NCBI GenBank assembly: GCA_038245905.1 | Contig: JBBRRY010000007.1 | Location: 63,398-127,397 of the forward strand | DNA: 64,000 bases | Reading direction: 5' to 3' | From: Thermoanaerobaculia bacterium | GTDB taxonomy: Bacteria; Acidobacteriota; Thermoanaerobaculia; UBA5066 | In this document: one piece after another, positions 8,921-44,398 of the stretch | How positions within the stretch are numbered: position 1 is the stretch's first letter | How the letters are laid out: each line of letters starts with the position of its first letter | The notes under the pieces: model-generated | The model's input: the letters and a program-made list of their open reading frames with translations, nothing else | Database searches by the model: none | What the model was told of the DNA's origin: nothing | Translations under genes and position numbers: made by a program

Positions 8921-9985
8921 ATGCGGGCACTCGTCTGCGACGGGCCGGGGCGGGTGGCCCTCCGTGAGGTCGCGACCCCGGAGCCGGGGCCGGGCGAGGT
9001 CCTCGTGCGCGTGGCCGTCGCGCTCACGTGCGCGACCGATTTCAAGATTCTGAAGCGGGGCCATCCGAAGATCCCGTTCCCTCTCACGCTCGGCCACGAG
9101 TTCGCGGGCCGGATCGAAAGAGCGGGCGCGGGGACGCCCTTCGACGTGGGGGATCGCGTGACGTCGGCGGTGTCGGGCCCGTGCGGAGACTGCGAGACCT
9201 GCCGTGCCGGCCGGCAGAACCTCTGCGCGTCGGCTTTCGACCAGCCGCTCTTCGGGGCCTTCGCGGACTTCATTCTCGTCCCGAAGCGCATCGTGAGGAA
9301 CGGGCTGAGGCGGATTTCTGAAGGACTCTCAGACGAAGCGGCTGCCCTCCTCGATCCGCTGGCGAGTGTCGTGCACGCGATCGGCCGGGTGGAGAGGTCC
9401 ATGGGCGGCGACGTTCTGATCGTTGGCACCGGCCCGATCGCGGCGATGCTGTTTTTTCTCTTGAGCGGGAAAAAGAAGGAGACGGAGAGGACGGGCGCGG
9501 AACGCCGGATTGTCGTCGCGGGACGGCGGGAGGAGAGACTCGTTTTCTTTGAAAGGAACAGAGCGGAGATTGTGCGCATCGCCGACCCTTTGCGCGAGCC
9601 GGCCGCCGGAGCCTCCGGTCTCCTCTTCACCTTCAAAGAAAATCCCCGGTCTTTCTCTCTCGTCATCGACACGACCGGCGCTGCCGGCGTGATCGAAGCG
9701 CTGCCCGGACTCGCCGCGGACGGCGGGACAGTGCTCCTCTTCGCCGGGCTGCCCGCCGGGGCTCGTGTCTCCCTCGACGCGCACGCGATCCACTACCGCG
9801 AGGTGTCGATCGTCGGCTCGTTCCACTACACGCCGCAGGAAGTTGATGAAGCCCTCACGCTCCTTTCGAAGGGAGCGGTCCCGGCCTCGGAGGTCGTCTC
9901 AGCGGCTCGCCCTCTCGCCGACTGGCGGGTCGCGTTCGATCTCGTGAAGGGCGGCGCCACGATGAAGGTTGGTCTCGTCCCGTGA
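8921..9985 (+). CDS. Zn-dependent alcohol/sugar dehydrogenase (MDR family)
   Basis: CATD, LGHEFAG, structural Zn CGDCETC-x7-C, Rossmann GTGPIA. Confidence 0.88.
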   Translation: MRALVCDGPGRVALREVATPEPGPGEVLVRVAVALTCATDFKILKRGHPKIPFPLTLGHEFAGRIERAGAGTPFDVGDRVTSAVSGPCGDCETCRAGRQNLCASAFDQPLFGAFADFILVPKRIVRNGLRRISEGLSDEAAALLDPLASVVHAIGRVERSMGGDVLIVGTGPIAAMLFFLLSGKKKETERTGAERRIVVAGRREERLVFFERNRAEIVRIADPLREPAAGASGLLFTFKENPRSFSLVIDTTGAAGVIEALPGLAADGGTVLLFAGLPAGARVSLDAHAIHYREVSIVGSFHYTPQEVDEALTLLSKGAVPASEVVSAARPLADWRVAFDLVKGGATMKVGLVP

Positions 9986-10998
9986 AGGCGGTTCTCGTGC
10001 GGTCCCTCGACGACATCGCAATCGTGGAGATGGAGGCGCCCCGGCCGGGCCCCGGAGAGATCGTCGTCGCGATGAAGGTCGTGGGCATCTGCGGCAGCGA
10101 TACGACTCCGTGGTACGTGGCGACGAAGGCCCCGGTCGTCCTCGGACACGAACCGTCGGGCGTCGTCGCGGAGACGGGGGCGGGCGTCACGTCGTTTCAC
10201 ACGGGAGATCGCGTCGTCGTCCACCATCACGCCGCGTGCGGCATCTGCCGTTACTGCCGCGCGGGCGAGGACGTCATGTGCGCGGAGTGGAAGAGGACGC
10301 GGCTTCACCCGGGCGGTCTCGCCGAGCGCGTTCGGGTCGAGGCGGCCGCGGTCGCCACGGACACGCTGCGTTTCCAGGACAGCCTTTCCTTCGAGGACGG
10401 CGCTCTCGTCGAGCCGCTCGCTTGCGCCGTGAAAGCGGTGCGCCGCGCACGCGTCGGCGCGGGGGACGCGGTCCTCGTGATCGGGCTCGGGGCGAATGGC
10501 ATCATGCTCGGCCTCGCCGCACGGGACGCGGGCGCGGCGTCTCTCGTCGGGTGCGACCCGGATGCTCAAAGGAGGGCTCACGCTCTTCGGCTGGGCTTCG
10601 ATCAGGTGCTGGCGCCCGAAGAGGACCTCTCTGGGAAAATGAAGAGCTGCGATGGTGCGGGCGCGGACGTCGTCTTCGTGCTGCCGACGGGCGAGGACGC
10701 GGTTCATTCGGCGCTCGCTTCGGCGGGGCCCGCCGGCCGCGTCGTCTTCTACTCGCCCGTGCAGCCTGGCAAGACGTGGATGATCGAAGCGCATCGGCCT
10801 TATCTAAAGGACCTTTCGCTGCACTTCTCCTATTCCTGCGGCGCGGCCGACATGCGAGAGGCGCTTGCGCTCCTGGCGCGCGGCGCGGTCCGGTCCGCCG
10901 ACCTCGTGACGCATCGCGTGCCTTTCGAGAGGGCCGCCGAGGCCTTCGCGCTCGCGCGCCGGGGAGGCGACGTCCTCAAGGTCGTCGTGACGTTCTGA
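9982..10998 (+). CDS. Zn-dependent alcohol/sugar dehydrogenase (MDR family)
   Basis: GICGSD, LGHEPSG, CGICRYC-x7-C, EPLAC, GLGANG; GTGA overlap with upstream gene. Confidence 0.9.
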   Translation: MKAVLVRSLDDIAIVEMEAPRPGPGEIVVAMKVVGICGSDTTPWYVATKAPVVLGHEPSGVVAETGAGVTSFHTGDRVVVHHHAACGICRYCRAGEDVMCAEWKRTRLHPGGLAERVRVEAAAVATDTLRFQDSLSFEDGALVEPLACAVKAVRRARVGAGDAVLVIGLGANGIMLGLAARDAGAASLVGCDPDAQRRAHALRLGFDQVLAPEEDLSGKMKSCDGAGADVVFVLPTGEDAVHSALASAGPAGRVVFYSPVQPGKTWMIEAHRPYLKDLSLHFSYSCGAADMREALALLARGAVRSADLVTHRVPFERAAEAFALARRGGDVLKVVVTF

Positions 10999-11744
10999 AG
11001 AAACGTCTGGACGTCGTTCTCGTGGAGCGCGGGCTCGCCGAGTCGCGAACGCGGGCCGAAGCGCTCATCCTCGCGGGCCGAGTCTCTGTCGCGGGGCGAG
11101 AGCGGGTCAAACCGGGCACGCCGGTCGCGGAGGATGCCGAAATCCAGGTGGGGGAGCCCGAACATCCGTGGGTTTCGCGTGGGGGCGTGAAGCTGGACTT
11201 CGGACTCACACATTTCGGAATCGAGGCGAAGGGGCGGGTGTGTCTCGACGTCGGCGCCTCGACGGGCGGATTCACGGACGTGCTTCTCGCCCGAGGCGCG
11301 TCGCGGGTTTACGCCCTCGATGTTGGCTACGGCCAGCTCCACGCCCGGCTCCGGAGCGATCCGCGCGTCGTGGTGCGCGAGAGGTTGAATGCGCGGTTCC
11401 TGTCGCGCCGCGACGTACCGGAAGAGCCGTCGCTTCTCGTGGCGGACGTGTCGTTCATCTCGCTCACCCTGATTCTTCCGTCGGTCGTGCCGCTTCTCGC
11501 GGAAGGAGCCGACGCTCTATTCCTCGTGAAGCCGCAGTTCGAAGCGGAGCGGCGCGAGGTGGGACGCGGGGGAATCGTGCGCGACGAGGGTGTGCGCGCG
11601 CGCGCGGCGGCCCGCGTGAGTGCGGCAGCCGCGTCGCTCGGCCTTGCGAGCCGCGGGGTGATTCCCTCTCCGATCACGGGGGCGGAGGGAAACGTGGAGC
11701 TCCTCGCCGCGTTCCGCCGGAATCCCGCTACACTTCGGGGGTGA
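10995..11744 (+). CDS. tlyA: TlyA family rRNA (cytidine-2'-O)-methyltransferase
   Basis: S4 domain KKRLDVVLVERGLAESR; VSRGGVKL, LDVGASTGGFTD, DVSFISL, VKPQFE, SPITGAEGNVE; probable CTG start overlapping upstream TGA. Confidence 0.93.
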   Translation: MKKRLDVVLVERGLAESRTRAEALILAGRVSVAGRERVKPGTPVAEDAEIQVGEPEHPWVSRGGVKLDFGLTHFGIEAKGRVCLDVGASTGGFTDVLLARGASRVYALDVGYGQLHARLRSDPRVVVRERLNARFLSRRDVPEEPSLLVADVSFISLTLILPSVVPLLAEGADALFLVKPQFEAERREVGRGGIVRDEGVRARAAARVSAAAASLGLASRGVIPSPITGAEGNVELLAAFRRNPATLRG

Positions 11745-12649
11745 AAGCCGCGAAGCCCGGGGGCCGCCGTGTCCGGCGCGTGGGTCTCGTGACCCGCCAC
11801 CGGAGCACCGCCGCGATCGCCCTCGCGCGCAAGCTCGAGCGCCTCCTCGTGCGGCGGGGAATCACGGTCCTCCACGATCTCGAATCGTCGCGCGCCCGCG
11901 GCGTTTCCGGCGGGGCTCCGCGCGCGCAGATTGCGCGGCTCGTCGATCTCGTCGTGACCCTCGGAGGCGACGGAACGCTTCTCTCGGTGGCCCGCCATCC
12001 GGCCCCCGGCGTTGCGGTGCTTGGGATCGACATCGGCAGACTGGGGTTTCTTACGACCTGCCGGCCGGACGAGGCGGGCCCGGTGCTCGAGGCTGCGCTC
12101 GCGGGGACGGCGCACGTGGAGAAACGCCGTCTGCTGTCGGTCCGTGTGACGGAGGGCGCGCGCGCCCCGCGCGCCTCGCGCCTCTACCGGATCGTGAACG
12201 ACGCTGTCCTCTCCAAGTCGGCGCTCGCGCGCATCGCCACGATCCGCGTCGACGTGAATGACCGTCTCGTGTCGCGGTACCGGGGAGACGGGCTGATCGT
12301 GTCCACGCCGACGGGTTCCACCGCCTATAACCTCTCGGCGGGTGGCCCCATCCTCGAGCCCACGCTGGCGGCGCTCGTCCTCACGCCGATCTGTCCGCAC
12401 ACGCTGACGCTGAGGCCTCTCGTGCTTCCCGATTCGGTCCGGCTCGATCTTTCGGTGGAGGACGATCCGGCGGACGTGTTCCTGACCCTGGACGGACAGG
12501 AAGGGTTTCCAGTGAGCTCCACGACGCGCATCTCGATCGCGCGCTCCTCCGAGACCGTGTCGTTGGTGCGGGCTTCGGAGGCCTCGTTCTTCGAGGTTCT
12601 CGCCGGAAAGCTCTCGTTCGGCGGTGAGCGGGATAGCGCGGCGCGGTAA
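11741..12649 (+). CDS. nadK: NAD(+) kinase
   Basis: LGGDGTLL, GRLGFL, VNDAV, GDGLIVSTPTGSTAYNLSAGGP, TPICPH. Confidence 0.95.
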   Translation: MKAAKPGGRRVRRVGLVTRHRSTAAIALARKLERLLVRRGITVLHDLESSRARGVSGGAPRAQIARLVDLVVTLGGDGTLLSVARHPAPGVAVLGIDIGRLGFLTTCRPDEAGPVLEAALAGTAHVEKRRLLSVRVTEGARAPRASRLYRIVNDAVLSKSALARIATIRVDVNDRLVSRYRGDGLIVSTPTGSTAYNLSAGGPILEPTLAALVLTPICPHTLTLRPLVLPDSVRLDLSVEDDPADVFLTLDGQEGFPVSSTTRISIARSSETVSLVRASEASFFEVLAGKLSFGGERDSAAR

Positions 12650-12656
12650 CGGAGAG

Positions 12657-15600
12657 ATGCACCGCCTTCCGCAGCTCTCCCTCACTCAGGTCCGGCTCTT
12701 CCGTCTCTTCACGCTTCTTCTCGTCTTCTCCCTCCTCGTCCTTTACGGCGTCTTCCGCTCGACGCGCTTCCAGGAGCTTCTACGCCGGAGAACGGAGAGG
12801 TTCCTGACCGCGAAGATCGGGAGAACCGTCACGCTCGGCGGCTTCGACCTCGTGCTCCTCCCGTTTTCCGTGCTCGTCCGCGAGGTTTCCGTGGCCAACG
12901 ACCCGCGCGGCCTCGCGGGCGCCATGTTTTCGGCGTCCGAGATCGAGGTGCGCGGCCTGCCGACGCTTTCGAAGAGCCGCATCGACCTTCGGAAGCTCCG
13001 CGTGGTTTCGCCGCGCGTGGTCATCGAGGCTTTTCCGGACGGCACCACGAACCTGACGGGGCCCCTCAAGGCCGTCGCGGGAGACGCCGGCGGGGGCCTG
13101 GACATCAGGCTTCAGGAAGCGATCGTCCAGAGGGCCTCGCTCCGGTTCCGGGACTGGGAAGCCGAAATCGATGCCCACCTCCAGGACGCCGCGGTTACCG
13201 CCACGTCCGGGCGCAGCCGGACGGTGACGTACCTCGCTCTCGCGTGCCGCAAGGGCCGCTTCAAGCTGGAGAACAACGAAACTCTGGAATTCGCCCTCGG
13301 CGCGGAGGTGACGCTCGCGCCGGGGCGCGTCCACCTGACGGGACTCAGGCTTCGCGGCGAGCGTCTGAAGGTCGAGGCCTCCGGAGGAATCGACGACCTC
13401 CGGAAGCCGGTGTTCGCTCTCGTCGCACGGGCCGAGACGACCGGGGAATCGCTGTCGAGAGTCTTCGGCCTCGGCCTTCCGCTGTCGGGCCGCGTCCGCA
13501 TGCACGGCACGATGCGGTTCGGCGAGCCGGGCGGATTCCGTATTTTCGGTGCGTTCGATCTGCCCGCCGCCGCGTTCGGGCCCTTTCCGATGAACGGCGA
13601 GGGTCTGCTTCGCGTCGATTCGAAGGGGATTCTCGTGAACGTGACGCGCGCAAACTATGCGGGCGGAACGCTGGAGGCCCTGATTCAGCTGGAGCGGATC
13701 AACAATCCTCCGCTTCCCGTGCGCATCGCCCTGCGCGGCCGCGGGATGGACTTCGAGCAGTTCTTCGCCGATCTCGGACTCAAAGGTACGGGACTCGTCG
13801 GAAGGGCGGACCTCGACACGTCCCTCACGTTCGGGCGGGGAGGGATCGAGCACGCGGACGGCATCGGACGAATCCGTGTCACGGCCGACGACGGCAGGCA
13901 TTCGGCGGTACGCGGACGCTTCGCATTGCCGGTTTCCGGTGGCGGCCCTCTCAGGATTCGAGACGGACAGCTTCTCTTTTCCGGTGTCCCGTTCTCGACG
14001 GCCGGGGGTGCACGGATCCGCCTCGACGGCGGCCTCCGGCTCGGGACGTGGGAGCCCGATCTTCAGCTCGACATCGCGGCGGACGATCTCGCCGAGGTCG
14101 AGCGTCTCGCGGACAACTTCTATCCCGCGATCCAGAACGAGCCTCTGACGCCTCCGTTGAAGCTGGGAGGAGCCGGCCGCTTCGTTGCGCATCTGACCCG
14201 CAGCTTCAGCGATCCGCGGGTCGAGGGCCGCCTCACGGCCTCCCAGTTCGTGCTGCGCGGCGTGCGGTTCGGGACGACGTCGGTGGAGTTTCTCGTGGAC
14301 CACAACGTGGCCACGTTCTCCCCGTTCACGGCGAAAGACGGCGACGCCGGGCTCTCACTCACGGGAAAGATCGGCTGGGGCGGGCCCCTCAAGGGAGCGT
14401 ATCGCCTGGACGGCCTCACGGCGGATTTTTCGCGGTGGCCAATCGAGCGCGTGATGGCGTTCCTCGACCTCGACGTTCCGATCACCGGCGCGGTCACGGG
14501 GCGGCTGCCGCTCGATGGGGTGACTCCCGCCGTGTCCGGGCGAGTCCCGCTCGTCCTGACGGACGCGAGCGTCTGGGGACAGAAGCTCGACCGTCTCGAA
14601 GGCGTCGTCGCCTTCGAAAAGGACCGGATCGTGATCGAAGACGCCACGACGCGACTGGCGGCCGGGACGGCGAAAGGGAGCGGATTCTTCCGCTACGCCG
14701 ACCGCGCGTACGCCCTCGATCTCGACGGGAAGGCCTTGCCGGTCGACCGTCTCGACGCGGCGACGGGGCTTGCGCTGACGGGCTCACTCTCGGGGCACAT
14801 CAAGGGCTCAGGAACCGTCGACAAGCCGAACCTCGACGTGGCGGTGCGTATTGCCGATGCGGCGTGGAGCGGCAGTCCGCTTGGGCGCGCCGGGACCGAA
14901 GTCGAATTGAGTGCCAAAGGCGATCATGGCGCCTTTACGTTCTTCGTCCGTGCGCCGGAGGCGGCCGAAATCACACTGGCGCCCGACGGGGCGGAAGGCC
15001 GCTGGCGGGCCCGGCTCGACGTCGCGTCGCTGGCTCCCTTCGCCTCGCTGATCGGCGCTCCCGAGGACGCGGGGCTCGACGGGCGGCTCGTTGCCGAGGC
15101 GTCGCTGACAGCGGGCAAGGATCTCGCGACGTGGCGGGGCGAAGGCGCGGTGTCGATCGCGCGGGTCACGGCGTATGGGCGAACCCTCGACCTCCGGGGA
15201 GCCGCGCCGCTGCGCGTCACGGACGGAAAGCTGTTCCTCGAGCGGCTCACGCTCGCCGAAGCGCTTCGTCCGGAGCTCCCCGCGGGCACGGCGACGGCCT
15301 TCACAATCGCAGGAAGCGGCGGCCTCACGTCTCCCTACGCGCTCGACCTGTCGGTGAGCGGCTCTTTCGACGCGACCCTCCTCAGACCCGCCCTCTCCGG
15401 AATGAATGCGGCCGGGCGCGTCAGCGTCGACCTGAAGATCGGCGGCACGTCCGCGGCGCCCGCATTGACGGGGCGCGCCGCGCTGGATGGGGTCGACCTG
15501 TCGAATCCGGGCGGCATTGCGTTCGAAGCGATCACGGGAACGCTTCTATTTTCGGAGGGCCGGGTCACGTTCGGGGATCTCACTCTTCGCTACAGCGGCG

Positions 15601-19423: not shown

Positions 19424-19484
19424 GAGCGGCTGGCCGCGGCTTCGGAGGCGCTGGCCGCGGCCCCTGGCGGGCTTACAATGGTTC

Positions 19485-23233: not shown

Positions 23234-23260
23234 ACGCGTGGACGAGGGACCGGAGACCGG

Positions 23261-23277
23261 GGGATTTCTTAGAAGGT
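23261..23277 (-). repeat. Representative copy of the dispersed motif ACCTTCNAAGAAATCCC (about 12 copies/variants in window)
   Basis: Reverse complement ACCTTCTAAGAAATCCC; near-identical copies at 9629-9646(+), 23854-23870(+), 29314-29330(+), 35540-35556(-). Confidence 0.7.
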
Positions 23278-23300
23278 AATTGGGCGGGTGCCCGCGGTCG

Positions 23301-23996
23301 TCAGTCGCGGTAGCGCTTGGCCAGCTGGTCCGGCGCCTCGCCCCTCTTGACCCTTCTCAGAATCTCCCAGTTCTTCAGAACAGTTTTCATGACGCCCCTT
23401 TCGAGGTAGCGCCGCGGCGAGGTCTCGACCGGGAGGGGAAGGAGCGCGATGCGCCCTTCGGCGCGGAGTCGCCGCGCAAGGTCCCAGTCCTCGAGAAGCG
23501 GCCACGGGCGGTGGCCGCCGAGGCACTCGTAGACGTCGCGCCGAACGAAAGGGGCCTGGTCGCCATAGGGCATGCGCGTGAACCGGTTGCGGAGGTTCGC
23601 CCAGCCCGCGACCCACGACATCCGCCAGCCCCCGCCGGAGAAACCGAGCCGGAATGCGCCGCCGGCGGCGCCGGCGGCAATCGCCGTGCGAACCGCCGAG
23701 TCCCAGCCAGGCGGGAGGACCGTGTCCGAATGCAGGAAAAGAAGAACGGAAGATTCTTCGAAGGGTAAGAGGGCGGCCGCCTCGCCGAGGCGCTGGCCGC
23801 GCGTTACCGGTGACAGGTGAAGACGAGCGCCTGCCTGCACGAAGGCCTCTTTCACATTCGAAGAAATCCCCAAATCCCCTGCCACGACCAGCGAAACGGG
23901 TGACTCGGCGCCCGTGACCCTTTCGAAGAAGATCTTCGACGGGGCGGCTTCGGCGACCCCTACAGGCACGATGACGCCGATCGAGAGGGAGCCCAA
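23301..23996 (-). CDS. Family 2 glycosyltransferase (TIGR04283-like)
   Basis: LLFLHSDT, GGAFRLGF, PYGDQAPFVRR, GG...PLLED, TSPRRY; N-terminal half divergent. Confidence 0.8.
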   Translation of the reverse strand: MGSLSIGVIVPVGVAEAAPSKIFFERVTGAESPVSLVVAGDLGISSNVKEAFVQAGARLHLSPVTRGQRLGEAAALLPFEESSVLLFLHSDTVLPPGWDSAVRTAIAAGAAGGAFRLGFSGGGWRMSWVAGWANLRNRFTRMPYGDQAPFVRRDVYECLGGHRPWPLLEDWDLARRLRAEGRIALLPLPVETSPRRYLERGVMKTVLKNWEILRRVKRGEAPDQLAKRYRD

Positions 23997-27618: not shown

Positions 27619-29403
27619 GTGAGCGTTTCCCCTACGGCCGCCGGCCTCGACGTGCTTCTGTCGGAGGGCGGGAGGACGGCAGAGGTTCTTCGCGGGAAGA
27701 AGCTCGGCCTCCTCGCGAATGCGGCCTCGGCGACCGCCGGCTTTGATTCCGCCGCCCGCGCGCTTCTCTGCGCGGGATACGACGTGCGCGTTCTCTTCGG
27801 CCCCGAGCACGGGTTCTGGGGGGCGGCCCAGGACATGGAGGCCGTCGCGTCCGGAGAGCCTTCGCGCATTCCGGTCGTGTCTCTCTACGGCTCCACGCTC
27901 GAGGATCTCTCCCCGAGGCCCGAGCACCTCGCCGGTCTCGAAGCCGTCGTCTCGGACCTGCCCGACGTCGGCAGCCGCTATTACACCTTCGTCTGGACGA
28001 CGGCGTTGATGATGAAGGCCTGTGCGGCGCGCGGAATCCCCGTCTTCGTCCTCGACCGGCCGAACCCGCTCGGCGGGGAGATCGTCGAGGGGAACCTGCC
28101 CGAGGAAGAGCTCCTTTCCTTCGTCGGCCTCTACCCGGTGCCGGCTCGCCATGGGATGACACCGGGGGAGGTCGCGTGGTTCGTGAATGCCGAGTACGGG
28201 CTGGGTTGCGACCTCACGGTCGTGCCGATGAAACGCGACGGGCGGGCCGCGTCGCGGACGGAGCTCGCGGACACGGGTGCCTGGGTGCTGCCCTCCCCGA
28301 ACATGCCGACGCCGGAAACCGCGGCGGTCTATCCCGGAGGCTGCCTCGTCGAGGGGACGAATCTCTCCGAAGGCCGGGGCACGACGCGGCCCTTCGAACT
28401 CCTCGGCGCGCCATGGCTCGACGCCGACGAGGCGGCCGACGCCGGGAACGGCCTCAGCTTGCCCGGCGTCAACTTTCGCCCTCACGTTTTCAGGCCCACG
28501 TTTCAGAAGCACGCGGGGAAAACCTGCGGCGGCGTGCAGGTACACGTAACGGAGAGAGCGACGTTCCGTCCGTACGAGACGTATCTCCGGCTCCTGAAGG
28601 CGCTCCGCGACCTGGACCCGGAACGCTTCCGCTGGCGGACGGAGAAATACGAGTACCGCGACGACGTTCCGGCGATCGACCTCCTTGCGGGCACGGCGAC
28701 GTACCGCAAGCTCGTGGACGAGGGCGCGAGTCTGGACTCCTGGATCGCGTCGTTCCGCGAAGACCAGAAGCACTTCGAAGCGCGACGCGGCCCTCACCTG
28801 CTCTATCCCACTCGAAGAAATTCTCCTTCGGTTCTTCTCGTCACGGGTGCGCACGAGTCGGGCAAGACGACGGTCGCGGTGCAGCTCATCGAGGCGCTCG
28901 CGAAGGAAGGCCTGAGAGTCGGATCGCTCAAGCACACGGACCACGAATACGAGACGGACATGGAGGGCAAGGACTCGCAGCGCCACAAGGCGGCGGGCGC
29001 GGAGCCGTCGGTGCTGGTGGCGGGACGGCGCAGTGCGGTGCACAGAGGACCGCGAGAGATTCTTGCTTCGGACCCGATCGCGGGCGCGGCCGGAGCAAAC
29101 GCCCGGCCTGCTCTATCCGTTTTCTTAGAAGGGGAATATGGCCTTGGAGAGTGCGACGTCGTCCTGGTCGAAGGGTTCCGGAGCGAGCCATATCCGAAGA
29201 TCGAGGTGTGCCGCGCGGCCACGGGCCGCGCGCCTCTCTGCGAAAACGACCCGAACGTCCTCGCCGTCGTCACGGACCGGTCCACGCAGCACGCCTCATC
29301 CGTTCCCCGATTCACCTTCAAAGAAATCCCTTCCCTCGTTCTCTTTCTAAAGAAGTCCCCCGTCTTCTCTTCTCTCTTTTCTTCTCTCTTCGGAGCACCA
29401 TGA
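27619..29403 (+). CDS. Fusion of DUF1343/NamZ exo-beta-N-acetylmuramidase and MobB (molybdopterin-guanine dinucleotide biosynthesis P-loop protein)
   Basis: NamZ motifs LFGPEHG, SLYG, DVGSRYYTF, LDRPNP, RHGMT, PSPNMPT, EGTNLSEGRGTTRPFE ending HLLY; then MobB motifs GAHESGKTT, LKHTDH, GKDS.RH, LVEGFR, PKIEV in the same frame. Confidence 0.88.
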   Translation: MSVSPTAAGLDVLLSEGGRTAEVLRGKKLGLLANAASATAGFDSAARALLCAGYDVRVLFGPEHGFWGAAQDMEAVASGEPSRIPVVSLYGSTLEDLSPRPEHLAGLEAVVSDLPDVGSRYYTFVWTTALMMKACAARGIPVFVLDRPNPLGGEIVEGNLPEEELLSFVGLYPVPARHGMTPGEVAWFVNAEYGLGCDLTVVPMKRDGRAASRTELADTGAWVLPSPNMPTPETAAVYPGGCLVEGTNLSEGRGTTRPFELLGAPWLDADEAADAGNGLSLPGVNFRPHVFRPTFQKHAGKTCGGVQVHVTERATFRPYETYLRLLKALRDLDPERFRWRTEKYEYRDDVPAIDLLAGTATYRKLVDEGASLDSWIASFREDQKHFEARRGPHLLYPTRRNSPSVLLVTGAHESGKTTVAVQLIEALAKEGLRVGSLKHTDHEYETDMEGKDSQRHKAAGAEPSVLVAGRRSAVHRGPREILASDPIAGAAGANARPALSVFLEGEYGLGECDVVLVEGFRSEPYPKIEVCRAATGRAPLCENDPNVLAVVTDRSTQHASSVPRFTFKEIPSLVLFLKKSPVFSSLFSSLFGAP

Positions 29404-31017: not shown

Positions 31018-31028
31018 AATCCGGGGCT

Positions 31029-33733: not shown

Positions 33734-33737
33734 GCGC

Positions 33738-34859: not shown

Positions 34860-34860
34860 C

Positions 34861-35583
34861 TCAGCGGGCGACGAGAATACCGGCGAGGCCCATCTCGCCG
34901 AGCGAGTCGCGGGCCGATTCGGCTTCCACGCGCGATGCATAGGGACCGAACTTCACGCGCTTGATGCCTCCGGCGTCCTCGACCCACGGTGTCGGGTAAC
35001 GGATGGCGAGGCGGTCGCGAAGCCGCACCGCGTTTTCCTGAGAGGCGAACGCGCCAGCCTGCACGGCCCAGCCCGCGGCCGGTGCGTCCGGCTCGGGCCG
35101 GGCGGCCGTATTCGCGGGCGTCGGGGCCGGCGGTTCGTCGCTCTTCGCCCGGATGCGGGAGTTGTCGCCGAACGTGACGACGCGAAGGGTCACGGGCACG
35201 ACGCCGTCTCCGACCGACCCGATCTCCTGGGCGGCCGCCTTCGAGAGATCCACGATTCGGCCCGCCACGAAGGGCCCGCGGTCGTTGATCTTCACGCGAA
35301 CGGTCCTCCCGTTCTTCTCGTTCAGGACGTCCACGATCGTCCCGAGCGGCAGCGTGCGGTGCGCGGCGGAGATCTTCTCGGGCCGGAACGTCTCGCCCGA
35401 AGCCGTCGGCAGCCCGTCGAATTCCTTCCCGTACCAGGATGCCAGTCCTCTTTCGCCTCCCCGGGAATCGGCGGCGGTCTTCGCGGGGGGACGAGAAGAA
35501 CAGGCTGCTAGGAAGAAGAGAATCAGGAGAGGAGAAAAGAGGATTTCTTTGAAAGGGAATAGGGCGCGGCGCGGAGTCTTCAG
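34861..35583 (-). CDS. rlpA: Septal ring lytic transglycosylase RlpA lipoprotein with SPOR domain
   Basis: Lipobox LAAC; GLASWYG, TASGE, AAHRTLP, INDRGPF, IVDLS; SPOR VQAGAF; probable CTG start overlapping purB stop. Confidence 0.9.
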   Translation of the reverse strand: MKTPRRALFPFKEILFSPLLILFFLAACSSRPPAKTAADSRGGERGLASWYGKEFDGLPTASGETFRPEKISAAHRTLPLGTIVDVLNEKNGRTVRVKINDRGPFVAGRIVDLSKAAAQEIGSVGDGVVPVTLRVVTFGDNSRIRAKSDEPPAPTPANTAARPEPDAPAAGWAVQAGAFASQENAVRLRDRLAIRYPTPWVEDAGGIKRVKFGPYASRVEAESARDSLGEMGLAGILVAR

Positions 35584-37034: not shown

Positions 37035-37038
37035 GGAG

Positions 37039-37203: not shown

Positions 37204-37270
37204 CGGAGATCCCGTGAGCGTTCAGGTTAGCATCCCGGAGGCGGCCCAAGCCGCAACTTCGAGGCCCACG

Positions 37271-38554: not shown

Positions 38555-38565
38555 AAAGGGTGTTC

Positions 38566-39489
38566 ATGTTTCAGAAAGACCTGATCTCGATCCACGATCT
38601 GGCCGCTCTCGACATCGCGGCTCTCTTCACGCTGGCCGCGAGCATGAAGGCTCGCCCGAAGGACTTCCGGACGGCCCTCTCCGGGAAGATCCTCGCCATG
38701 ATCTTCGAGAAGTCCTCCACGAGGACGCGCGTCTCGTTCGAGGCGGGGATGACGCAGCTCGGCGGTGCCGCCCAGTTCCTGTCGGCACGCGACATCCAGA
38801 TCGGGCGCGGCGAGCCGATCGCGGACACGGCGCGCGTCCTGTCGCGATACGTGGACGGCATCATGGCGCGCACCTTCGCGCACGACACGGTCGTCCAGCT
38901 CGCCCGCCACGCGACGATCCCGATCATCAACGGCCTGACGGACCTTCTCCATCCCTGTCAGGCGTTGACGGACTACTTCACGATGAGCGAGAAATTCGGC
39001 GCGCTTTCGGGTCTCCGGCTCGCGTACGTCGGCGACGGCAACAACATGGCGCACTCGCTGATGTTCGGAGGGCCGAAGTGCGGAGTCCACGTGGCCGTCG
39101 CGACGCCGCCGGGCTACGAGCCGGATGCGTCCGTCACGGCGCGCGCGCGCGCGGACGCCGCGGCGGCGGGAACGACGCTCCTCGTGACGCATTCCCGGGA
39201 AGAGGCGGTCGCCGGTGCCCACGTCGTTTACACCGACGTGTGGGCGTCGATGGGCCAGGAGTCCGAGCAACAGAAGCGCGTGCGCGACTTCGCGGGCTGG
39301 ACCGTCACGGACGAGCTCCTTGCCCTCGCGAATCCCGACGCCGTCTTCATGCACTGCCTCCCGGCGCACCGCGGCGAGGAAGTGGCCGCCAGCGTCTGCG
39401 ACGGGCCCCGTTCCGTCATTTTCGACGAGGCAGAGAACCGCCTCCACGTCCAGAAGGCGATTCTCGCCACTCTGATGGGCCGCTCCTGA
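38566..39489 (+). CDS. argF: Ornithine carbamoyltransferase
   Basis: FEKSSTRTR, HPCQ, GDGNN, TDVWASMG, HCLP, AENRLH. Confidence 0.96.
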   Translation: MFQKDLISIHDLAALDIAALFTLAASMKARPKDFRTALSGKILAMIFEKSSTRTRVSFEAGMTQLGGAAQFLSARDIQIGRGEPIADTARVLSRYVDGIMARTFAHDTVVQLARHATIPIINGLTDLLHPCQALTDYFTMSEKFGALSGLRLAYVGDGNNMAHSLMFGGPKCGVHVAVATPPGYEPDASVTARARADAAAAGTTLLVTHSREEAVAGAHVVYTDVWASMGQESEQQKRVRDFAGWTVTDELLALANPDAVFMHCLPAHRGEEVAASVCDGPRSVIFDEAENRLHVQKAILATLMGRS

Positions 39490-40526
39490 CGCGCCGTCTC
39501 GTTTCCGCTGCTGCCTGCTGCGCCCTCGCGATGGGGGGCGCGTGCCGCAAGACCGGCCCGGCCGCCCCGGCGCACGCCGCGTTGCCGGACGACCGAGGCG
39601 TCGTCACGCTCGAGCGAGTCGCGGCGCACGCCGATGCGACCCCGAAAGCGCCGCCGCTCCTCATGCTGCCGCGCGGGACGGAGCTCAAGGTGCTCGAGTC
39701 TCGGGGCGATGTGGTCCGCGTCGTGGCGGACCGGCGGGATCTCTGGATTCCGGCCGGAAGTTTCGAGCGGAGGGCGGATCGCGAGGCGCGCGAGAAGCGC
39801 GGCGTCGCGATCGCTGGGTTCGTGGCGCATCCGGCGCGGGCGGTCGAGTCCTGTCCGATCTTCCTGGCTCCCGACTACGGCGCCGCCCGATGGGGCACGC
39901 TCGAGGATGGCGACGACGTGGATGTCGTGCTCTCGGATCACGATTTCTTCGGCGTCCGCCTCGCAGGGAAGATGCTCGCCTTCGTCCCCACGCGCTCCGT
40001 GCGCCTTCTCCCGTCTTCGGTTTCGGTGGTTCCGGCCCAGGCCGCCGGGCGTGGGGTCGTGCCCGAAATCCAGTCGCTCGGGGTCCCGGACCGGGATCTG
40101 CGCCCGACGCCGGGGGGACGCATCCCGGTTTCGACTGCCGTCGCGGGCGCCGTGCCTGCTCCCGTCACGACCCCGGCTGCGGTCGCGCCGGCGCCAATCC
40201 TCCCGCAGGACCCGCTGGTGTCGCTCCCCGATGGATCCGAGCTGCCGGTGCTCGTCTCGCGCGTGGACGCCCGTTACCCGGACGCGGCCCGACGGATGAA
40301 CCTGACCGGCGAAGTCATGCTCAGGATCGTCGTGGAGGGGAGCGGCTACGTGGGCCGCATCGACGTGCTCACGGCCGGACCCGCGGGCATGACGGAGGCC
40401 GCGGTGGACGCGGTCCGGCGCTGGAAGTACCGCCCCGCGCGAGTCCACGGGCAACCCGTAGCGGTCTGGAAGGTCGTGAGGATCCGTTTCGCCCGCACGG
40501 TCGAGCGCGAGCCCCCTCCGGACTGA
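39486..40526 (+). CDS. Putative lipoprotein with SH3-like domains, Pro/Ala linker and TonB C-terminal domain
   Basis: Signal ending GGAC; LPRGTELKVLE...VRV...WIP; TonB_C YPDAARR...GEVMLRIVV...AAVDAVRRWKYRPA; probable CTG start overlapping argF stop. Confidence 0.78.
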   Translation: MTRRLVSAAACCALAMGGACRKTGPAAPAHAALPDDRGVVTLERVAAHADATPKAPPLLMLPRGTELKVLESRGDVVRVVADRRDLWIPAGSFERRADREAREKRGVAIAGFVAHPARAVESCPIFLAPDYGAARWGTLEDGDDVDVVLSDHDFFGVRLAGKMLAFVPTRSVRLLPSSVSVVPAQAAGRGVVPEIQSLGVPDRDLRPTPGGRIPVSTAVAGAVPAPVTTPAAVAPAPILPQDPLVSLPDGSELPVLVSRVDARYPDAARRMNLTGEVMLRIVVEGSGYVGRIDVLTAGPAGMTEAAVDAVRRWKYRPARVHGQPVAVWKVVRIRFARTVEREPPPD

Positions 40527-40579
40527 ACCGGCCCAGGGGAAGGCCGATCCGCCTTGACCCTATAAACTCCTTCTCGCCA

Positions 40580-42223
40580 ATGTTCGAGATCGTTTACGAG
40601 GTCGAGGGGCAGACCCGGCGTTTCCTCTTGTCCGGCGGAGACGTGTCGATCGGGCGCTCGAGCGAGAACGGGATCGTCCTGAATGACTTTTCCGTCTCGC
40701 GGAGGCACGCGGTCCTGTCCGAGCGCGGCGGTGTCTGGACGATCGAGGATCTCAAGTCGACGAACGGCCTGAAGGTCAACGGCGAGTTCGCGCCGAAGTC
40801 GCCGCTTCAGGCGAACGACGTCCTCTCGGTTGGGGCCTTCACCCTCCACGTGCGCGAGCAACCGACGACCAAAAGCATCGGCGTGAAGGCGATCAGCGAC
40901 TCGAGCTCCACGTTCGTCCGCTCGATCGCGGATTTCAACCGGGACTACAACCTCGAGGCCACGAGCACGGGCCCGGGCATGGGAGTCTCCGACCTCGCAG
41001 GAACGCTGTCCGGCAGGCGTCCCGCGCCCGAGAAAGCGCGCGAGAAGATTTTCGAGATCCTCGTCCAGGTAGCCCGCACTCTCATCGAGGCGCCGGACGT
41101 GGACCAGATCCTCTCGAAGGTCGTAGACCTCCTTTTCGACTTCCTACCCGCGGAGCGCGCCGTCGTCGTGCTGCGAGAGGACTCGGGACGGCTCGTCGCG
41201 ACGCTCGCGCGCCAGAGAGGACGCGTCGGCACGGAGGCCGCCGAGACGTTCTCGCACACGATTGTCGAGACCGTCGTGCGCGAGCGCGTGGCGGTCCTGA
41301 CCTCGGACGCTCTCACCGACGACCGTTTCGAAGCGGGCCAGTCGATCCGCATTCAGCAGATCCGGTCGGCGATGTGCGTTCCCCTCTGGAACCGTGAACA
41401 CGTCATCGGCGCGCTCCACGTCGACACGCCCCTGAAGACGGGCACGTTCACGGCCGACGACCTCGATCTCCTGACTGCGCTCGGAAACTTCGCGGCCGTC
41501 GCGATCGAGCGCGCGCGCCTGCAGGGACGCATCGCGAAGGAAGAACGGATTCGGGAGCGACTCGCCCGCTATCACTCGCCCGGCGTCGTCGAGGAGATCG
41601 TCTCCGAGGGCCCGGCCGGCGTCGAGAAGGTCCGGACCCGGGATGTGACGGTGTTCTTCGCCGACATTATCGGGTTCACGACGGCCGCGGAGGCGATGGC
41701 GCCCGAAGACCTTTCGATCTTCCTCGAAACCGTCTTCACGTTCGCCGCGGATGCGATCTTCGAGCAAGGGGGCACGCTCGACAAGTTCATCGGGGACGCC
41801 GTCATGGCGTTTTTCGGGGCGCCGATTCCGCAGCCCGATCACCCCCGCCGCGCGGTGGCGGCGGCGGCAAAGCTCATCGAGAGCCTGAAGGCATGGAACG
41901 TGGGACGCGTGGGGCGCGGCGAGCCGGAGGTGGCCGTACGGGTGGGCGTCAACTCGGGGAACGCCGTGGTCGGCGACATCGGGTCCGACCGCCGCGTGGA
42001 CTACACCGTCCTCGGAAATACGGTGAACGTCGCGGCGCGGCTCGAAAGCTCTGTCGCCGGGCCGAACGAGATCGTGGTGGGCGAGGAGACCGCGCGCCTC
42101 GCGGGCGATGCGTTCGTCTTCGAACCGCTCGGAGAACAGCGGCTGAAGGGCCTCACGAAGGGTCTGAGGGCCTTCCGGGTCGTCCTCGGCGAGACCGGCG
42201 CGCCGATTCGTCCCCCAAAGTGA
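40580..42223 (+). CDS. FHA-GAF-class III adenylate cyclase
   Basis: FHA IGRS...VSRRHA...DLKSTNG; GAF IRSAMCVPL; cyclase FADIIGFT, DKFIGDAVMA, YTVLGNTVNVAARLE. Confidence 0.92.
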   Translation: MFEIVYEVEGQTRRFLLSGGDVSIGRSSENGIVLNDFSVSRRHAVLSERGGVWTIEDLKSTNGLKVNGEFAPKSPLQANDVLSVGAFTLHVREQPTTKSIGVKAISDSSSTFVRSIADFNRDYNLEATSTGPGMGVSDLAGTLSGRRPAPEKAREKIFEILVQVARTLIEAPDVDQILSKVVDLLFDFLPAERAVVVLREDSGRLVATLARQRGRVGTEAAETFSHTIVETVVRERVAVLTSDALTDDRFEAGQSIRIQQIRSAMCVPLWNREHVIGALHVDTPLKTGTFTADDLDLLTALGNFAAVAIERARLQGRIAKEERIRERLARYHSPGVVEEIVSEGPAGVEKVRTRDVTVFFADIIGFTTAAEAMAPEDLSIFLETVFTFAADAIFEQGGTLDKFIGDAVMAFFGAPIPQPDHPRRAVAAAAKLIESLKAWNVGRVGRGEPEVAVRVGVNSGNAVVGDIGSDRRVDYTVLGNTVNVAARLESSVAGPNEIVVGEETARLAGDAFVFEPLGEQRLKGLTKGLRAFRVVLGETGAPIRPPK

Positions 42224-42819
42224 CGGGAGCCGCGGAAGCCACGAACGCCAGGGACGCGCTCTTCGGGCTGACGTTCGTGACGTCGAACGTGGGCAAGGCG
42301 CGCGAGGCCGGGGCGCTTCTGGGTTGCGCGGTGACGGCGCGAGCGCTCGACATCCCCGAGATCCAGTCGCTCGACTTCGCCGAGGTAGCCCGGGCGAAGG
42401 CCGTCGTCGCGGCGCGTGCGCTTGGCGTCGCCGTCCTCGTCGAGGACTCGGGTCTCGTCGTCGCGGGCTGGGGAGGCTTTCCCGGCCCGTTCACGAAGTG
42501 GATCACGATGGGCGCCCTCGGCCAGGAGGGCCTCGCGAAGATGCTCGACGGGTTTTCCGACCGCAGCGCCGAAGCCATCTCGGCCCTCGCGGTCGCGCGA
42601 CCGGGGCAGGCGGATCGAGACGTCGTCGTCGCGATCGGACGCGTCGGGGGAACGATCGCCCTTCACCCGCGCGGAGAGAACGGCTTCGGCTGGGACGTGC
42701 TCTTCATTCCTGAAGGCGCGACCAGGACGTGGGCCGAGATGAGCGACGACGAGAAGATGCGCGACTCGCACCGGGCGCGGGCTTTAGCGTCGCTCAGAAG
42801 CCTCCTGCGCGTCCCTTGA
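42220..42819 (+). CDS. rdgB: Non-canonical purine NTP pyrophosphatase (RdgB/HAM1)
   Basis: TSNVGKARE, EDSGL, FPGP, GFGWD, SHRARA. Confidence 0.9.
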   Translation: MTGAAEATNARDALFGLTFVTSNVGKAREAGALLGCAVTARALDIPEIQSLDFAEVARAKAVVAARALGVAVLVEDSGLVVAGWGGFPGPFTKWITMGALGQEGLAKMLDGFSDRSAEAISALAVARPGQADRDVVVAIGRVGGTIALHPRGENGFGWDVLFIPEGATRTWAEMSDDEKMRDSHRARALASLRSLLRVP

Positions 42820-43408
42820 GCTCCTTCGCGAGCTCGTCGACCTTCTTCAGGAGATCCTCTTTCGTTCCTTCCGTTCGGATCACGATGTCCGCGACTTCTT
42901 CGCGCGCGGCGTCGGAGAACTGAGCCGACATTCGTTTCACGAACTCGTTCGGATCCGTCTCGCCGCTTCTTCGGATCGCGCGCTTGAGGCGCATGTCCGC
43001 GGGCGCGGACACGGTCACGAGGACGTCGAAGCGCCGGCGGCCGCCGGTCTCGACGAGGAGGGTCGCTTCGATGACGCCGAGCGCTTCGCCTTTCGCCTCG
43101 AGGCCCTGGAACCAACGGGCCTGCTCGCCCTGGACGAGCGGATGGATGAGGGCGTTGAGGCGCGAGAGCGAAGGAGGATCGTGAAAAACGTGCGCGGAGA
43201 GCTTCGGCCGGTCGACCGAACCGTCCGCCGCGAGGAACTCGGGCCCGAAAGCCCCGGCGACCGCGCGGGCGCCCGCGCTCCCTTCCCGATACAGATCGCG
43301 CACGATGAGGTCCGCGTCGAGGACCGGGATCCCGCTCTCACGCAGGCGCTCGGCCACCGTGCTCTTGCCCGAGGCCAGACCGCCCGTGAGTCCGACCTTG
43401 AGGATCAT
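42794..43408 (-). CDS. coaE: Dephospho-CoA kinase
   Basis: VGLTGGLASGKSTV, DAD, DRPKL, LNALIHP, LLVE. Confidence 0.94.
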   Translation of the reverse strand: MILKVGLTGGLASGKSTVAERLRESGIPVLDADLIVRDLYREGSAGARAVAGAFGPEFLAADGSVDRPKLSAHVFHDPPSLSRLNALIHPLVQGEQARWFQGLEAKGEALGVIEATLLVETGGRRRFDVLVTVSAPADMRLKRAIRRSGETDPNEFVKRMSAQFSDAAREEVADIVIRTEGTKEDLLKKVDELAKELKGRAGGF

Positions 43409-44322
43409 CCCCGCCGGGCCCTGCAGAGCTCGAGTGTGTTCATCAAGAGCATCGCAATCGTCAGCGGGCCCACGCCGCCCGGGACGGGCGTATACCGCGA
43501 CGCGCGCGGAAACGCCGTTGCCGGGTCGCAGTCGCCGACGAGCGTCGAACCCTTCTTTTCGAACGACGCGAGGCGCGTCGCGTCGCCCGGGAAGAATCTC
43601 TCGACGTCGGCGCGGGACGTCACGCGGTTGATGCCGACGTCCACGAGGACGGCCCCCTCCTTCACGAAGTCCCCGGTGACGAAGCCCGGCCGTCCGATGG
43701 CGGCGACGAGGAGGTCGGCTTCGCGGCATAGGCCGGGAAGGTCCCGGGTCTTCGAATGCGCGATCGTCACGGTGGCGTCCCTCCGGAGGAGAAGGAGCGC
43801 CATGGGCTTCCCGACGATGTCGCTGCGGCCGACGACGACGGCCCGTGTCCCGCGGAGAGGCACGCCCTCGCGTTCCAGGAGCTCGAGAATCCCGGCGGGT
43901 GTGCAGGGCATCGGCGCGGGCTTCCCCTGCAGGAGCCGGCCTGCGTTCACGGGGTGGAACCCGTCGGCGTCCTTTGCTGGGTCGATGGCCTCCAGGACTC
44001 GCGCCGCGTCGATGTGAGCGGGGAGCGGAAGCTGGACGAGGATCGCGTCGACCGCCTCATCGCGATTCAGCTCGTCGACCGTGGCCAGGAGCGCCGACTC
44101 GGAAAGGTCGGCAGGGAAGCGCAGCGTTCTTTCCGTGATTCCGGCTTCGCGGGCGGCGGCTCCCTTGGCGGCGACGTATACGGCGCTCGCCGGGTTTTCC
44201 CCTACGAGGACGACCGCGAGGCCGGGTATGAGGCAGCGGGAGGCGAGAGACCTCACGCCGGAGGCCACCTCCAATCGGATCGCCTTCGAGACAGCCGTGC
44301 CATCCAGGATGCGCGGGGGCAT
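43405..44322 (-). CDS. folD: Methylenetetrahydrofolate dehydrogenase/cyclohydrolase
   Basis: YVAAK, LVQLPLP, KDADGFHP, PCTPAG, GRSDIVGKP, DVGINR, TPVPGGVGPLT. Confidence 0.97.
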   Translation of the reverse strand: MPPRILDGTAVSKAIRLEVASGVRSLASRCLIPGLAVVLVGENPASAVYVAAKGAAAREAGITERTLRFPADLSESALLATVDELNRDEAVDAILVQLPLPAHIDAARVLEAIDPAKDADGFHPVNAGRLLQGKPAPMPCTPAGILELLEREGVPLRGTRAVVVGRSDIVGKPMALLLLRRDATVTIAHSKTRDLPGLCREADLLVAAIGRPGFVTGDFVKEGAVLVDVGINRVTSRADVERFFPGDATRLASFEKKGSTLVGDCDPATAFPRASRYTPVPGGVGPLTIAMLLMNTLELCRARRG

Positions 44323-44398
44323 GCCCGTATTGTGACCGAGCCCTCTTAACGTTCTAGGAAATCGTGCTCTTCGGGCGGAGGAACCACAGGACCTTCGC

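Follow-up and report, generated by a model that had tools for sequence, protein, structure and literature searches.

A short strand-asymmetric DNA repeat arranged in head-to-head doublets within and between the genes of a Thermoanaerobaculia genus

The window analyzed here is a 64,000-nt stretch (contig JBBRRY010000007.1, G000:C7:63398-127397) of the genome of a sediment Thermoanaerobaculia bacterium (G000; 3,797,265 bases in 113 contigs, 67.8% G+C, 96.4% complete), and it carries members of a repeat family that has hundreds of copies in this genome. The repeats are asymmetric arms of ~50 bp that mostly occur as head-to-head doublets, occupy all six reading frames of unrelated genes, are characteristic of a single genus, and are gained and lost in blocks. 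With moderate confidence, they are interpreted as a lineage-restricted family of small non-autonomous repeats that resemble REPINs and MITEs (miniature transposable elements with inverted repeats), but without a known transposase. An earlier note on this window had described a dispersed single motif; all of its 13 core positions were present with the reported strand and letters, although the head-to-head pairing of the copies had been overlooked. The window holds four doublets (cores at 9545/9632, 23266/23354, 23754/23857, and 29122/29317) and single arms at 23922, 28811, 35545, 44352, and 63819.

The core of the motif, TTCNAAGAA, was found in 448 copies on both strands of G000. Genes in this genome were called with a crude, self-trained codon score, and the calls cover 93% of the genome. 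Within the predicted coding sequences, TTCNAAGAA occurred 343 times, compared with 73.8±9.0 copies (maximum 93) after synonymous shuffling that kept the proteins and 44.8±4.8 after codon permutation (20 shuffles per scheme), and the 13-mer CCTTCNAAGAAAT occurred 65 times, compared with 2.8±1.5 and 0.2±0.4, respectively. The predicted excess over a codon-preserving null was thus recovered, and these results indicate that both codon choice and amino-acid sequences are bent towards the motif. Genome-wide, CTTCNAAGAAAT and the exact 17-mer were present in 91 and 7 copies on both strands, and all 40 top 10-mers listed by over-representation under an order-5 Markov model were parts of the motif or of its AAGCA variant. 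In the window, the bare palindrome TTCNNNGAA was not enriched (26 vs 18.05±4.3 expected; 7 of 100 shuffles reached 26), and the extended 17-mer was enriched (5 at three mismatches or fewer vs 0.33 expected; none of 100 shuffles reached 5). A position matrix matched 837 sites in G000 at ≥14 bits, 696 at ≥16 bits, and 592 at ≥18 bits, where the counts at lower thresholds include false positives with no clean estimate of their number. An iterated version of the matrix drifted into plain C/T-rich DNA and was abandoned; its reversed-sequence control was invalid because the motif is nearly mirror-symmetric. The family is estimated to make up ~1% of the genome, taking ~840-930 arms of ~50 bp. An artefact of assembly ends was rejected, as contig ends were not enriched for sites (9 within 200 nt vs 10.0 expected).

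Alignment of the exact sites gave a strand-asymmetric arm of ~50 bp that consists of a head (CCCTCTTCACC), the core TTC[A/G/T]AAG[A/C]A, AAT, and a C/T-rich tail, which confirmed the tail proposed in the earlier note. The head is pyrimidine-rich, and a C two bases 5' of the core was present in 85% of all sites and in 97% of the paired sites. The free position N of the core TTC-N-AAGAA was A in 27%, G in 36%, T in 33%, and C in only 4% of the sites. The core is followed by A-A/T and then by the C/T-rich, G-poor tail of 20-30 nt, which fades after ~30 nt. A variant core with AAGCA in place of AAGAA and the same flanks accounted for a further 88 sites. The self-complementarity of an arm is limited to TTC-N3-GAA, a palindrome of 3+3 bp.

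Most arms are arranged in doublets with their cores 35-440 bp apart, including a purine-rich copy on the left and a pyrimidine-rich copy on the right with the tails pointing outward. The order is therefore purine-rich tail, reversed core, reversed head, inner segment, head, core, and pyrimidine-rich tail, so that the layout is its own reverse complement and looks the same from either strand. Among neighboring exact sites, 89 of 130 '-+' pairs lay within 400 bp, most of them at 50-200 bp, compared with 8 of 120 for '+-', 11 of 62 for '++', and 16 of 82 for '--'. When partners were sought with the matrix for 442 exact sites, an inverted partner was present 25-400 nt away on the head side in 279 (at ≥16 bits) to 321 (at ≥10 bits), and on the tail side in 26 to 50 at the same thresholds. 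The same order was seen by eye in loci from other members of the genus, with 19 close '-+' pairs and 2 '+-' pairs.

The doublet layout raises the question of whether the selected unit is a hairpin of RNA or single-stranded DNA, in which the arms pair and the inner part loops out, acting as an element for mRNA processing or stability or as a two-way terminator at gene junctions. Such a unit reads alike on both strands and would work whichever strand is transcribed, and arm-to-arm pairing of at least 15 bp was predicted in 68 of 90 doublets (median 26.5 bp) and in all seven folded examples. Doublets are also located at operon gene junctions, three of them in lysA-dapD-dapA-dapB-lysC. However, the fold z-scores were modest (-0.2 to -3.4), and the inner parts were not clearly more structured than random DNA (-0.393 vs -0.369 kcal/mol per nt, p = 0.056). 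The core letters are conserved beyond what pairing alone explains, and no Rfam family matched at gathering score in the window except five tRNAs. Moreover, the two arms of a doublet were no more alike than re-paired arms (2120 identities vs 2107±32; 179 of 500 re-pairings reached 2120), and this lack of covariation indicates that no compensatory evolution takes place between them. A hairpin under selection was dropped on this basis and is considered quite improbable. The same result suggests that each arm is recognized in duplex form by whatever process upholds the consensus.

Of the 448 exact cores, 349 were located in predicted genes and 99 (22%) outside, where ~7% of the genome lies outside the gene calls. 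Sites in genes were oriented with (180) or against (169) the gene and were spread evenly along it, and no orientation preference was seen in the intergenic DNA of G000 either. A promoter or intrinsic terminator was rejected because the sites have no fixed orientation or distance relative to genes, inside or between them. The arms occupy all six reading frames, and different peptides result. The free core position avoids stop codons, for example N = T is nearly absent in the frame where TAA would arise, and an arm can therefore fit any frame. Together with its persistence over the protein-kept shuffle, this agrees with the earlier view of a signal at the level of DNA rather than of protein. The claim that copies are overprinted on coding sequence holds in part, since 23266, 35545, 44352, and 63819 fell outside the crude gene calls. 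Likewise, the peptides that had been reported were verified at 9545/9632 (VFFER and LFTFKEN) and 29122/29317 (VFLEG and RFTFKEIP), whereas the one at 35545 is probably not translated because this site lies outside the gene calls.

Sites were enriched ~2-fold within 50 nt of gene ends (13.9% vs 8.4% of random points for starts, and 15.1% vs 7.6% for stops). Site density dropped from 4.98 to 0.40 per 10 kb between the lowest and the highest quintile of codon score, a trend that is partly circular because the arms themselves lower the score. Counts per 20 kb were over-dispersed (variance 17.1 vs mean 4.8), and the densest clusters were found in the lysine-biosynthesis operon and other ordinary genes, with no recombinase among the 10 proteins scanned there. 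The lysA-dapD-dapA-dapB-lysC (aspartate kinase) cluster (G000:C5:26561-29353, L235) contained nine arms in 2.8 kb, and its lysA/dapD, dapA/dapB, and dapB/lysC junctions each carry a doublet. In agreement with the earlier note, no full copy was found in the ribosomal and rpoBC genes, as 45000-63000 gave only weak matrix matches of 11-16 bits. Five tRNA genes (50651-51170) are located just upstream of the ribosomal-protein and rpoB/rpoC region, which is without strong arms.

The effect on proteins was observed in the ADH-type gene, where doublet 1 lies in the Rossmann domain. In an alignment with 10 genus and 12 outgroup orthologues, the left arm (VFFERN) replaced native helix residues, such as LSLEGMG or AAHVAEG, without any change in length relative to the outgroup genera, and the right arm (LFTFKEN) was located in an insertion of 5-30 residues that was found only in the genus. 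These alignments support the claim that the signal shapes proteins. At the DNA level, the left arm was present in all 12 aligned rows (G000 and 11 genus orthologues), and its register was shifted by one codon (3 nt) between species groups. The right core was absent in 3 of the 12 rows, with a gap of ~51 nt, and in one more by substitution; the inner part was collinear in all orthologues compared. In the open reading frame (ORF) at 27619-29403, NamZ and MobB are joined without a stop or start codon between them, and arm 28811 is located exactly at the joint. NamZ (exo-beta-N-acetylmuramidase) and MobB have unrelated functions, and the 8-residue joint (TRRNSPS) is encoded by the repeat arm; this ORF is either a real fusion protein or reflects an unusual MobB start. 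The MobB domain stretch is 149 residues compared with 133 in the Pfam profile (16 longer), and the low-complexity C-terminus of the ORF (RFTFKEIPSLVLFLKKSPVFSSLFSSLF) is encoded by the long C/T-rich tail of the right arm in doublet 4. The minus-strand ORF at 23301-23996 (231 aa) carries four arms (23354, 23754, 23857, and 23922); it has no Pfam family and a weak codon score, and its status as a real gene is uncertain.

The 13-mer CCTTCNAAGAAAT was present in 51-190 copies in each of 18 other genomes of the genus, which answers the question of related Thermoanaerobaculia raised in the earlier note. In 12 genomes that belong to two other families of this order (among them the unpublished G019 and G024), only 0-3 copies were present, and a reversed-pattern control gave 0 everywhere. 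Within the same family, a genome of a sister genus (G050) contained 40 copies of TTCNAAGAAAT, including true doublets, and another genome of that genus (G034) contained 2; three further genomes of other genera contained 0, 0, and 2. In G050, three paralogous genes at L069, L074, and L075, assigned by eye as Ser/Thr protein kinase-like, carry arms around the region that follows a conserved AIKVL strand: both arms are at matching places in L069 and L075, and only the left arm is present in L074. These doublets may have been inherited through gene duplication or gained in parallel. A scan with an 18-mer (17 fixed letters) of one genome per bacterial or archaeal species (596 Gb) gave at least 118 stretches; among 80 of them, most were titled Thermoanaerobaculia or Acidobacteriota, in line with the taxon guessed in the earlier note, and the remainder were single, chance-like matches in unrelated taxa. 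A scan of viral contigs gave 41 loci, nearly all with a single match, which were judged to be chance.

To examine turnover, a 17.5-kb part of the window was aligned with four relatives (78-90% identity); as kin, these and the other relatives do not count as independent samples. For each of the 10 G000 arms, at least one of the four carried an arm in the same column or close to it, and arm 23922 was present at the same column in all four other species aligned. The orthologous arm at the right of doublet 2 was nearer to the consensus in G008, G016, and G014 than in G000. The right arm at 23857 was shared by G000 and G008, whereas G016, G004, and G013 contained unrelated GC-rich sequence of equal length, such that ~20 of 28 positions differed from G000 without an indel while the flanks agreed. 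In G016 and G004, a left arm is located 60 columns away, where G000 has a head only and 9 nt of the core are missing. Downstream of the adenylosuccinate-lyase gene, the left arm stands alone in G000 and G004, the arms abut in G013, and G008 contains the inner part, the right arm, and a long tail (~100 nt). At nine window sites, cross-species identity was 0.76 for the core, 0.60 for the head, 0.63 for the tail, 0.69 for the outer flank, and 0.565 for the inner flank; the values for the core, head, and tail indicate that the within-genome consensus is not simply inherited letter by letter.

On a larger scale, 111 strong sites in 8-kb loci of the relatives were compared with G000, of which 66 were placed by both flanks, 16 were unplaced, and 29 had no usable match. 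Among the 66 placed sites, 41 were present in G000, 13 were absent with a gap, and 6 were absent or substituted (some of them alignment artefacts). At one locus (L110), a whole doublet of 174 nt in a relative corresponded to 1 nt in G000 between adjacent genes; this doublet supplies the stop codon (TAG) of the upstream gene at its start and the ATG of the downstream gene at its end. Other block differences between a relative and G000 measured 247 vs 15, 121 vs 13, 114 vs 8, and 83 vs 0 nt, and the 15 nt in the first case resemble a head that is fused to a tail with the core missing.

Differences between strains were likewise found at the arms. Contigs from four sediment runs, one of which may be the source of G000 itself, showed structural differences at 23708-23812, 29043-29104, and 28699-28831, all of them at or next to arms: related-strain contigs had 100 other letters in place of 23709-23811 and, in runs X2 and X3, 15 letters in place of 29044-29103, and a minority contig of run X1 skipped 28700-28830. 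Three of the four joints with at least 44 letters on the shorter side were at or next to arms, and the fourth (28076-28330) was not near an arm; 21 further joints lie beyond those displayed, and contigs drop rare forms. Inverted repeats that flank segments of 50-300 bp, some of them inside genes, together with strain differences at the arms, would also be expected if the arms were recombination brackets, i.e., if a site-specific recombinase inverted or excised the segments between them (intragenic invertons). However, no strand-change joint was listed in the contigs of the four runs, which hide rare forms, and the breakpoints of the strain differences did not coincide with the two cores. The collinear inner part of the ADH-type gene is also at odds with inversion, and this explanation is regarded as highly improbable.

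The presence of many hundreds of copies, the doublet unit, a lineage restriction with patchy edges, accumulation at weak constraint, turnover in blocks that extends to whole doublets with sharp edges, and a within-genome consensus point to a family of short interspersed repeats whose activity continues or ended only recently. A repeat family of this type would persist by vertical descent in one Thermoanaerobaculia genus, where its copies would continually be gained, lost, and rewritten as blocks and would survive where they do little harm, including gene junctions, intergenic DNA, and protein loops and termini. Its spread would depend on a putative sequence-specific enzyme that acts on DNA in trans and recognizes each arm in double-stranded form.

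Several observations weigh against the repeat-family interpretation. The inner segments are of ordinary composition (66.6% G+C) and mutually unrelated, with an all-against-all comparison giving 6 hit lines among 5 of 90 doublets (3 distinct pairs). The inner part was in the shared coding frame of its flanks in 19 of 25 doublets (chance ~1 in 6), and its translation matches native protein sequence in the ADH-type and MobB genes. The inner segment is thus usually not element DNA, which disagrees with a classical MITE that has a body of its own; that reading was rejected. This native-host spacer is the main difficulty for simple transposition, together with the left arm of the ADH-type gene, which has the look of overprinting rather than of insertion, and the equal-length 28-nt replacement at 23857. 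No target-site duplication was visible at L110, the sole clean whole-doublet boundary that was read. The copies share merely ~25-45 nt, and for this reason there is no sign of very recent bursts. Both the positional conservation across species (62%) and the better-kept core also fit selection on function, and the gene calls on which the location in genes depends are crude.

The search for machinery adds to these difficulties. G000, at 96.4% completeness, contained no match to Y1_Tnp (PF01797, RAYT-type), which was matched in 6 of 14 control genomes, and no RVT_1 reverse-transcriptase match, although a RAYT gene on unassembled DNA could have been missed. Nine '-+' pairs that are 450-3500 bp apart were without an evident transposase, and six genes translated from four long '-+' pairs looked ordinary by eye, without a Pfam test (Nudix-like, a membrane protein, infA-rpsM-rpsK, and BirA). 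The search yielded no autonomous parent and no insertion sequence whose ends are the arms. Identical arm copies ~85 nt from seven contig ends of G000 belong to an IS5-family insertion sequence, and a full copy of ~1.33 kb in a relative contains DUF772 and DDE_Tnp_1 domains and a 21-nt terminal inverted repeat (CTAGCAGGCTGYTGAARAAG). One arm is located in this element between the stop codon of the transposase and the right end of the element, whose ends themselves differ from the arms. Of 25 genomes of the genus, only 3 contained the element, so that it cannot explain a genus-wide family; it was rejected as the source of the repeat and is treated as a carrier. The element was flanked by CTAG at all seven ends seen and breaks the assembly at no fewer than seven places. 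It is adjoined in the window by a PIN-domain gene (62989-63672; VapC-like toxin, Pfam E = 1.3e-9), and the small ORF upstream of this gene could be its antitoxin.

Alternatively, the arms may be kept by selection as sites to which a host protein binds, for instance a nucleoid organizer, a factor of recombination or repair, or a transposase that has been domesticated. This protein would bind each asymmetric arm as a duplex so that two copies of it meet head to head across 50-300 bp. Such a protein would be consistent with a strict geometry with flexible spacing, with arms that do not co-vary, and with a consensus that is maintained whatever the frame, to the detriment of proteins. The 41 of 66 mapped strong sites that are shared in position, the core that is better conserved than its flanks, and an arm that overlays native coding sequence without an indel also agree with it, as does the single copy near one end of the IS5-family element, which recalls the host-factor sites of insertion sequences. 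In contrast, the sites avoid well-adapted genes and pile up at weak constraint, and they are clustered, neither even nor confined to one region. Species and strains differ in the presence of whole doublets, orthologous sites show no conservation of the head and tail, and no candidate protein was found. Binding sites of this kind are considered rather unlikely.

The native spacer, the helix overlay without an indel, and the equal-length 28-nt replacement suggest that single arms can be installed or refreshed by a patch-replacement process near existing arms. The 28-nt swap without length change, the one-codon register shift, and the whole doublets added at junctions lead to a bolder idea, in which the arms, rather than being inert ballast, would be the signal of a putative dedicated enzyme system that writes head-to-head brackets around 50-300-bp segments of native DNA across the chromosome, including housekeeping genes, by templated patch replacement, and the brackets would serve a DNA transaction new to bacteria. 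This proposal appears unlikely; if it were true, the brackets could mark segments for exchange, inversion, or repair. The readings are not fully exclusive, and a selfish element could at the same time be useful if a domesticated enzyme recognized it.

Returning to the interpretation as a REPIN/MITE-like family, the repeats are closest to REPINs in population behavior. REPINs are doublets of repetitive extragenic palindromic (REP) sequences with a RAYT transposase (PMC3116915 and PMC3337134). Like REPINs, the present family comprises hundreds of short repeats per genome and two inverted copies separated by a spacer, and it has a lineage-specific sequence, long vertical persistence, and no transposase inside the element. 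Unlike REP sequences, its arms are not hairpin-forming palindromes, and they are strand-asymmetric and pyrimidine-rich on one strand. REPINs are extragenic, whereas most cores here are in predicted genes and in all six frames, and the genic location was confirmed by homology for the ADH-type and MobB genes. The spacer is also variable and often consists of native host DNA, and, unlike in the REPIN/RAYT system, G000 lacked a Y1_Tnp match. Rickettsia palindromic elements, as described in PMC10969869, are ~150 bp long, encode one conserved peptide, and use one frame. Similar to these elements, the repeats are tolerated in unrelated protein-coding genes as in-frame additions that alter proteins, but they consist of 50-bp arms in all six frames, are paired around native sequence, and overlay native residues without an indel. 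No account of the repeat was found among the listed titles on Thermoanaerobaculia and repeats or through the motif 13-mers, which led to unrelated animal studies, with supplementary files outside the search.

MITEs such as the Correia/nemis elements have inverted ends, a conserved body, a target duplication, and a parent insertion sequence with the same ends. The repeats share with them inverted ends, the absence of coding capacity, presence/absence differences, and the possibility of long hairpins in transcripts, although their outer ends (tails) are fuzzy; they differ in the lack of a conserved body and of a parent insertion sequence with the same ends, and no target duplication was seen at the one clean boundary. 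Mycobacterial interspersed repetitive units are gene-oriented, tandem repeats at operon gene junctions that supply overlapping stop and start codons. The 174-nt doublet similarly brings its own TAG and ATG, but the arms are not gene-oriented. The cyanobacterial HIP1 is an 8-bp perfect palindrome that is kept inside coding DNA without flanks or pairing; the repeats resemble it as a short motif inside coding DNA and differ by their flanks and pairing.

The earlier note had likened the motif to DNA uptake sequences or to nucleoid or partition sites, an analogy that leaves the head-to-head pairing, the clustering, and the block-wise gain and loss unexplained. In uptake sequences, sites act singly and are fairly evenly spread, and we know of no counterpart among them to head-to-head pairing with an order rule. 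As an uptake sequence (USS/DUS), the motif would be kept frequent by biased uptake and recombination (molecular drive). It is indeed a lineage-specific, oriented, and over-represented motif with a core and flanking tracts, which is overprinted on coding DNA in both orientations and concentrated in weakly constrained parts of proteins, as are uptake sequences (PMC2817400 and PMC2346458); the former describes uptake sequences that co-evolve with proteomes. The competence genes that the note had asked about, ComEC and DprA, are present in G000, but they also match in 10 and 11 of 14 control genomes, respectively, and therefore decide nothing. The obligatory head-to-head pairing with its order rule, the strong clustering, change by blocks and whole doublets rather than by point steps, and a density of ~0.2 per kb all count against uptake, to which little probability is assigned.

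Bacterial short interspersed repeats are usually extragenic and tied to a known transposase. In this genus, one repeat family is embedded in many ordinary enzymes in every frame and visibly alters their sequences, and its arms even sit at in-frame gene joins or supply stop and start codons. The strict pairing rule is not fully explained by the REPIN, MITE, or uptake-sequence models. As a clean natural system, the family lends itself to asking how large a DNA-level burden proteins can bear, and its patchy distribution (a whole genus and one of two sister-genus genomes) provides a direct comparative handle for finding a new enzyme that mobilizes or binds the repeat. Arm patches will also mislead gene callers, through fused ORFs and low-complexity tails, and alignment-based phylogenies in this uncultured group. 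The arms of the window are listed in Table 1.

Table 1. Arms and arm-like patches in the window, with matrix scores.
Feature	Span	Core	Strand	Location and remarks	Score (bits)
Possible degenerate arm-like patch (weak)	9449..9484		-	TTTTTTCTCTTGAGCGGGAAAAAGAAGGAGACG; ADH-type gene; overlays helix after GxGxxG and adds genus-specific purine-rich insertion of 9-12 aa (orthologue alignments)	<11
Doublet 1, left arm	9515..9565	9545-9553, TTCTTTGAA	-	ADH-type gene 8921-9985; VFFERN	20.3
Doublet 1, right arm	9620..9670	9632-9640, TTCAAAGAA	+	Encodes LLFTFKEN	29.6
Doublet 2, left arm	23236..23286	23266-23274	-	Intergenic, just past stop of minus-strand gene 23301-23996; 0 mismatches to 17-mer	27.3
Doublet 2, right arm	23342..23392	23354-23362, weakened to TTCTCAGAA	+	C-terminal part of 23301-23996	16.4
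Doublet 3, left arm	23724..23774	23754-23762	-	Inside gene 23301-23996	24.5
Doublet 3, right arm	23845..23895	23857-23865	+		28.5
Extra right-oriented arm	23910..23960	23922-23930	+		22.7
Single arm, CTC-variant core	28799..28849	28811-28819	+	NamZ/MobB domain junction	22.5
Weak arm, AAGCA-variant core	29040..29085	29059-29072	-	TCCGAAGCAAGAAT on minus strand	
Doublet 4, left arm	29092..29142	29122-29130	-	Inside MobB; VFLEG	23.6
Doublet 4, right arm	29305..29400	29317-29325	+	0 mismatches to 17-mer; second degenerate core at 29345 (17.7 bits)	29.9
Single arm	35500..35565	35545-35553	-	Purine-rich tail; 27 nt past adenylosuccinate-lyase stop; partner arm missing	29.9
Single degenerate arm	44340..44390	44352-44360, TTCTAGGAA	+	Intergenic, 30 nt upstream of minus-strand folD start	18.0
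Arm in IS5-family element end	63789..63839	63819-63827, TTCTTAGAG	-	Element end at 63765-64000	

In G000, the strand of the arms (12-mers) was not linked to local GC skew or to regional gene strand (p = 0.52 and 0.18, respectively). In a relative with a 3.88-Mb contig (G055:C1), exact 12-mers formed same-strand runs of 21+/6- at 0.24-1.26 Mb, 10+/27- at 1.26-2.16 Mb, and 27+/9- at 2.16-3.21 Mb; dnaA is located on another contig. The 16S rRNA was not found in G000, and in five other genomes of the genus (L064-L068) the sequence across its 3' end and the beginning of the spacer is GGATCACCTCCTTT|CTAAGGGATC. This stretch resembles an arm (TCACC-TTCTAAG-AA-ATC) save for a 3-nt gap and GG in place of AA. 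The likeness may be a coincidence; if it is not, transcribed arms would imitate the anti-Shine-Dalgarno end, and reversed copies would look like strong ribosome-binding sites.

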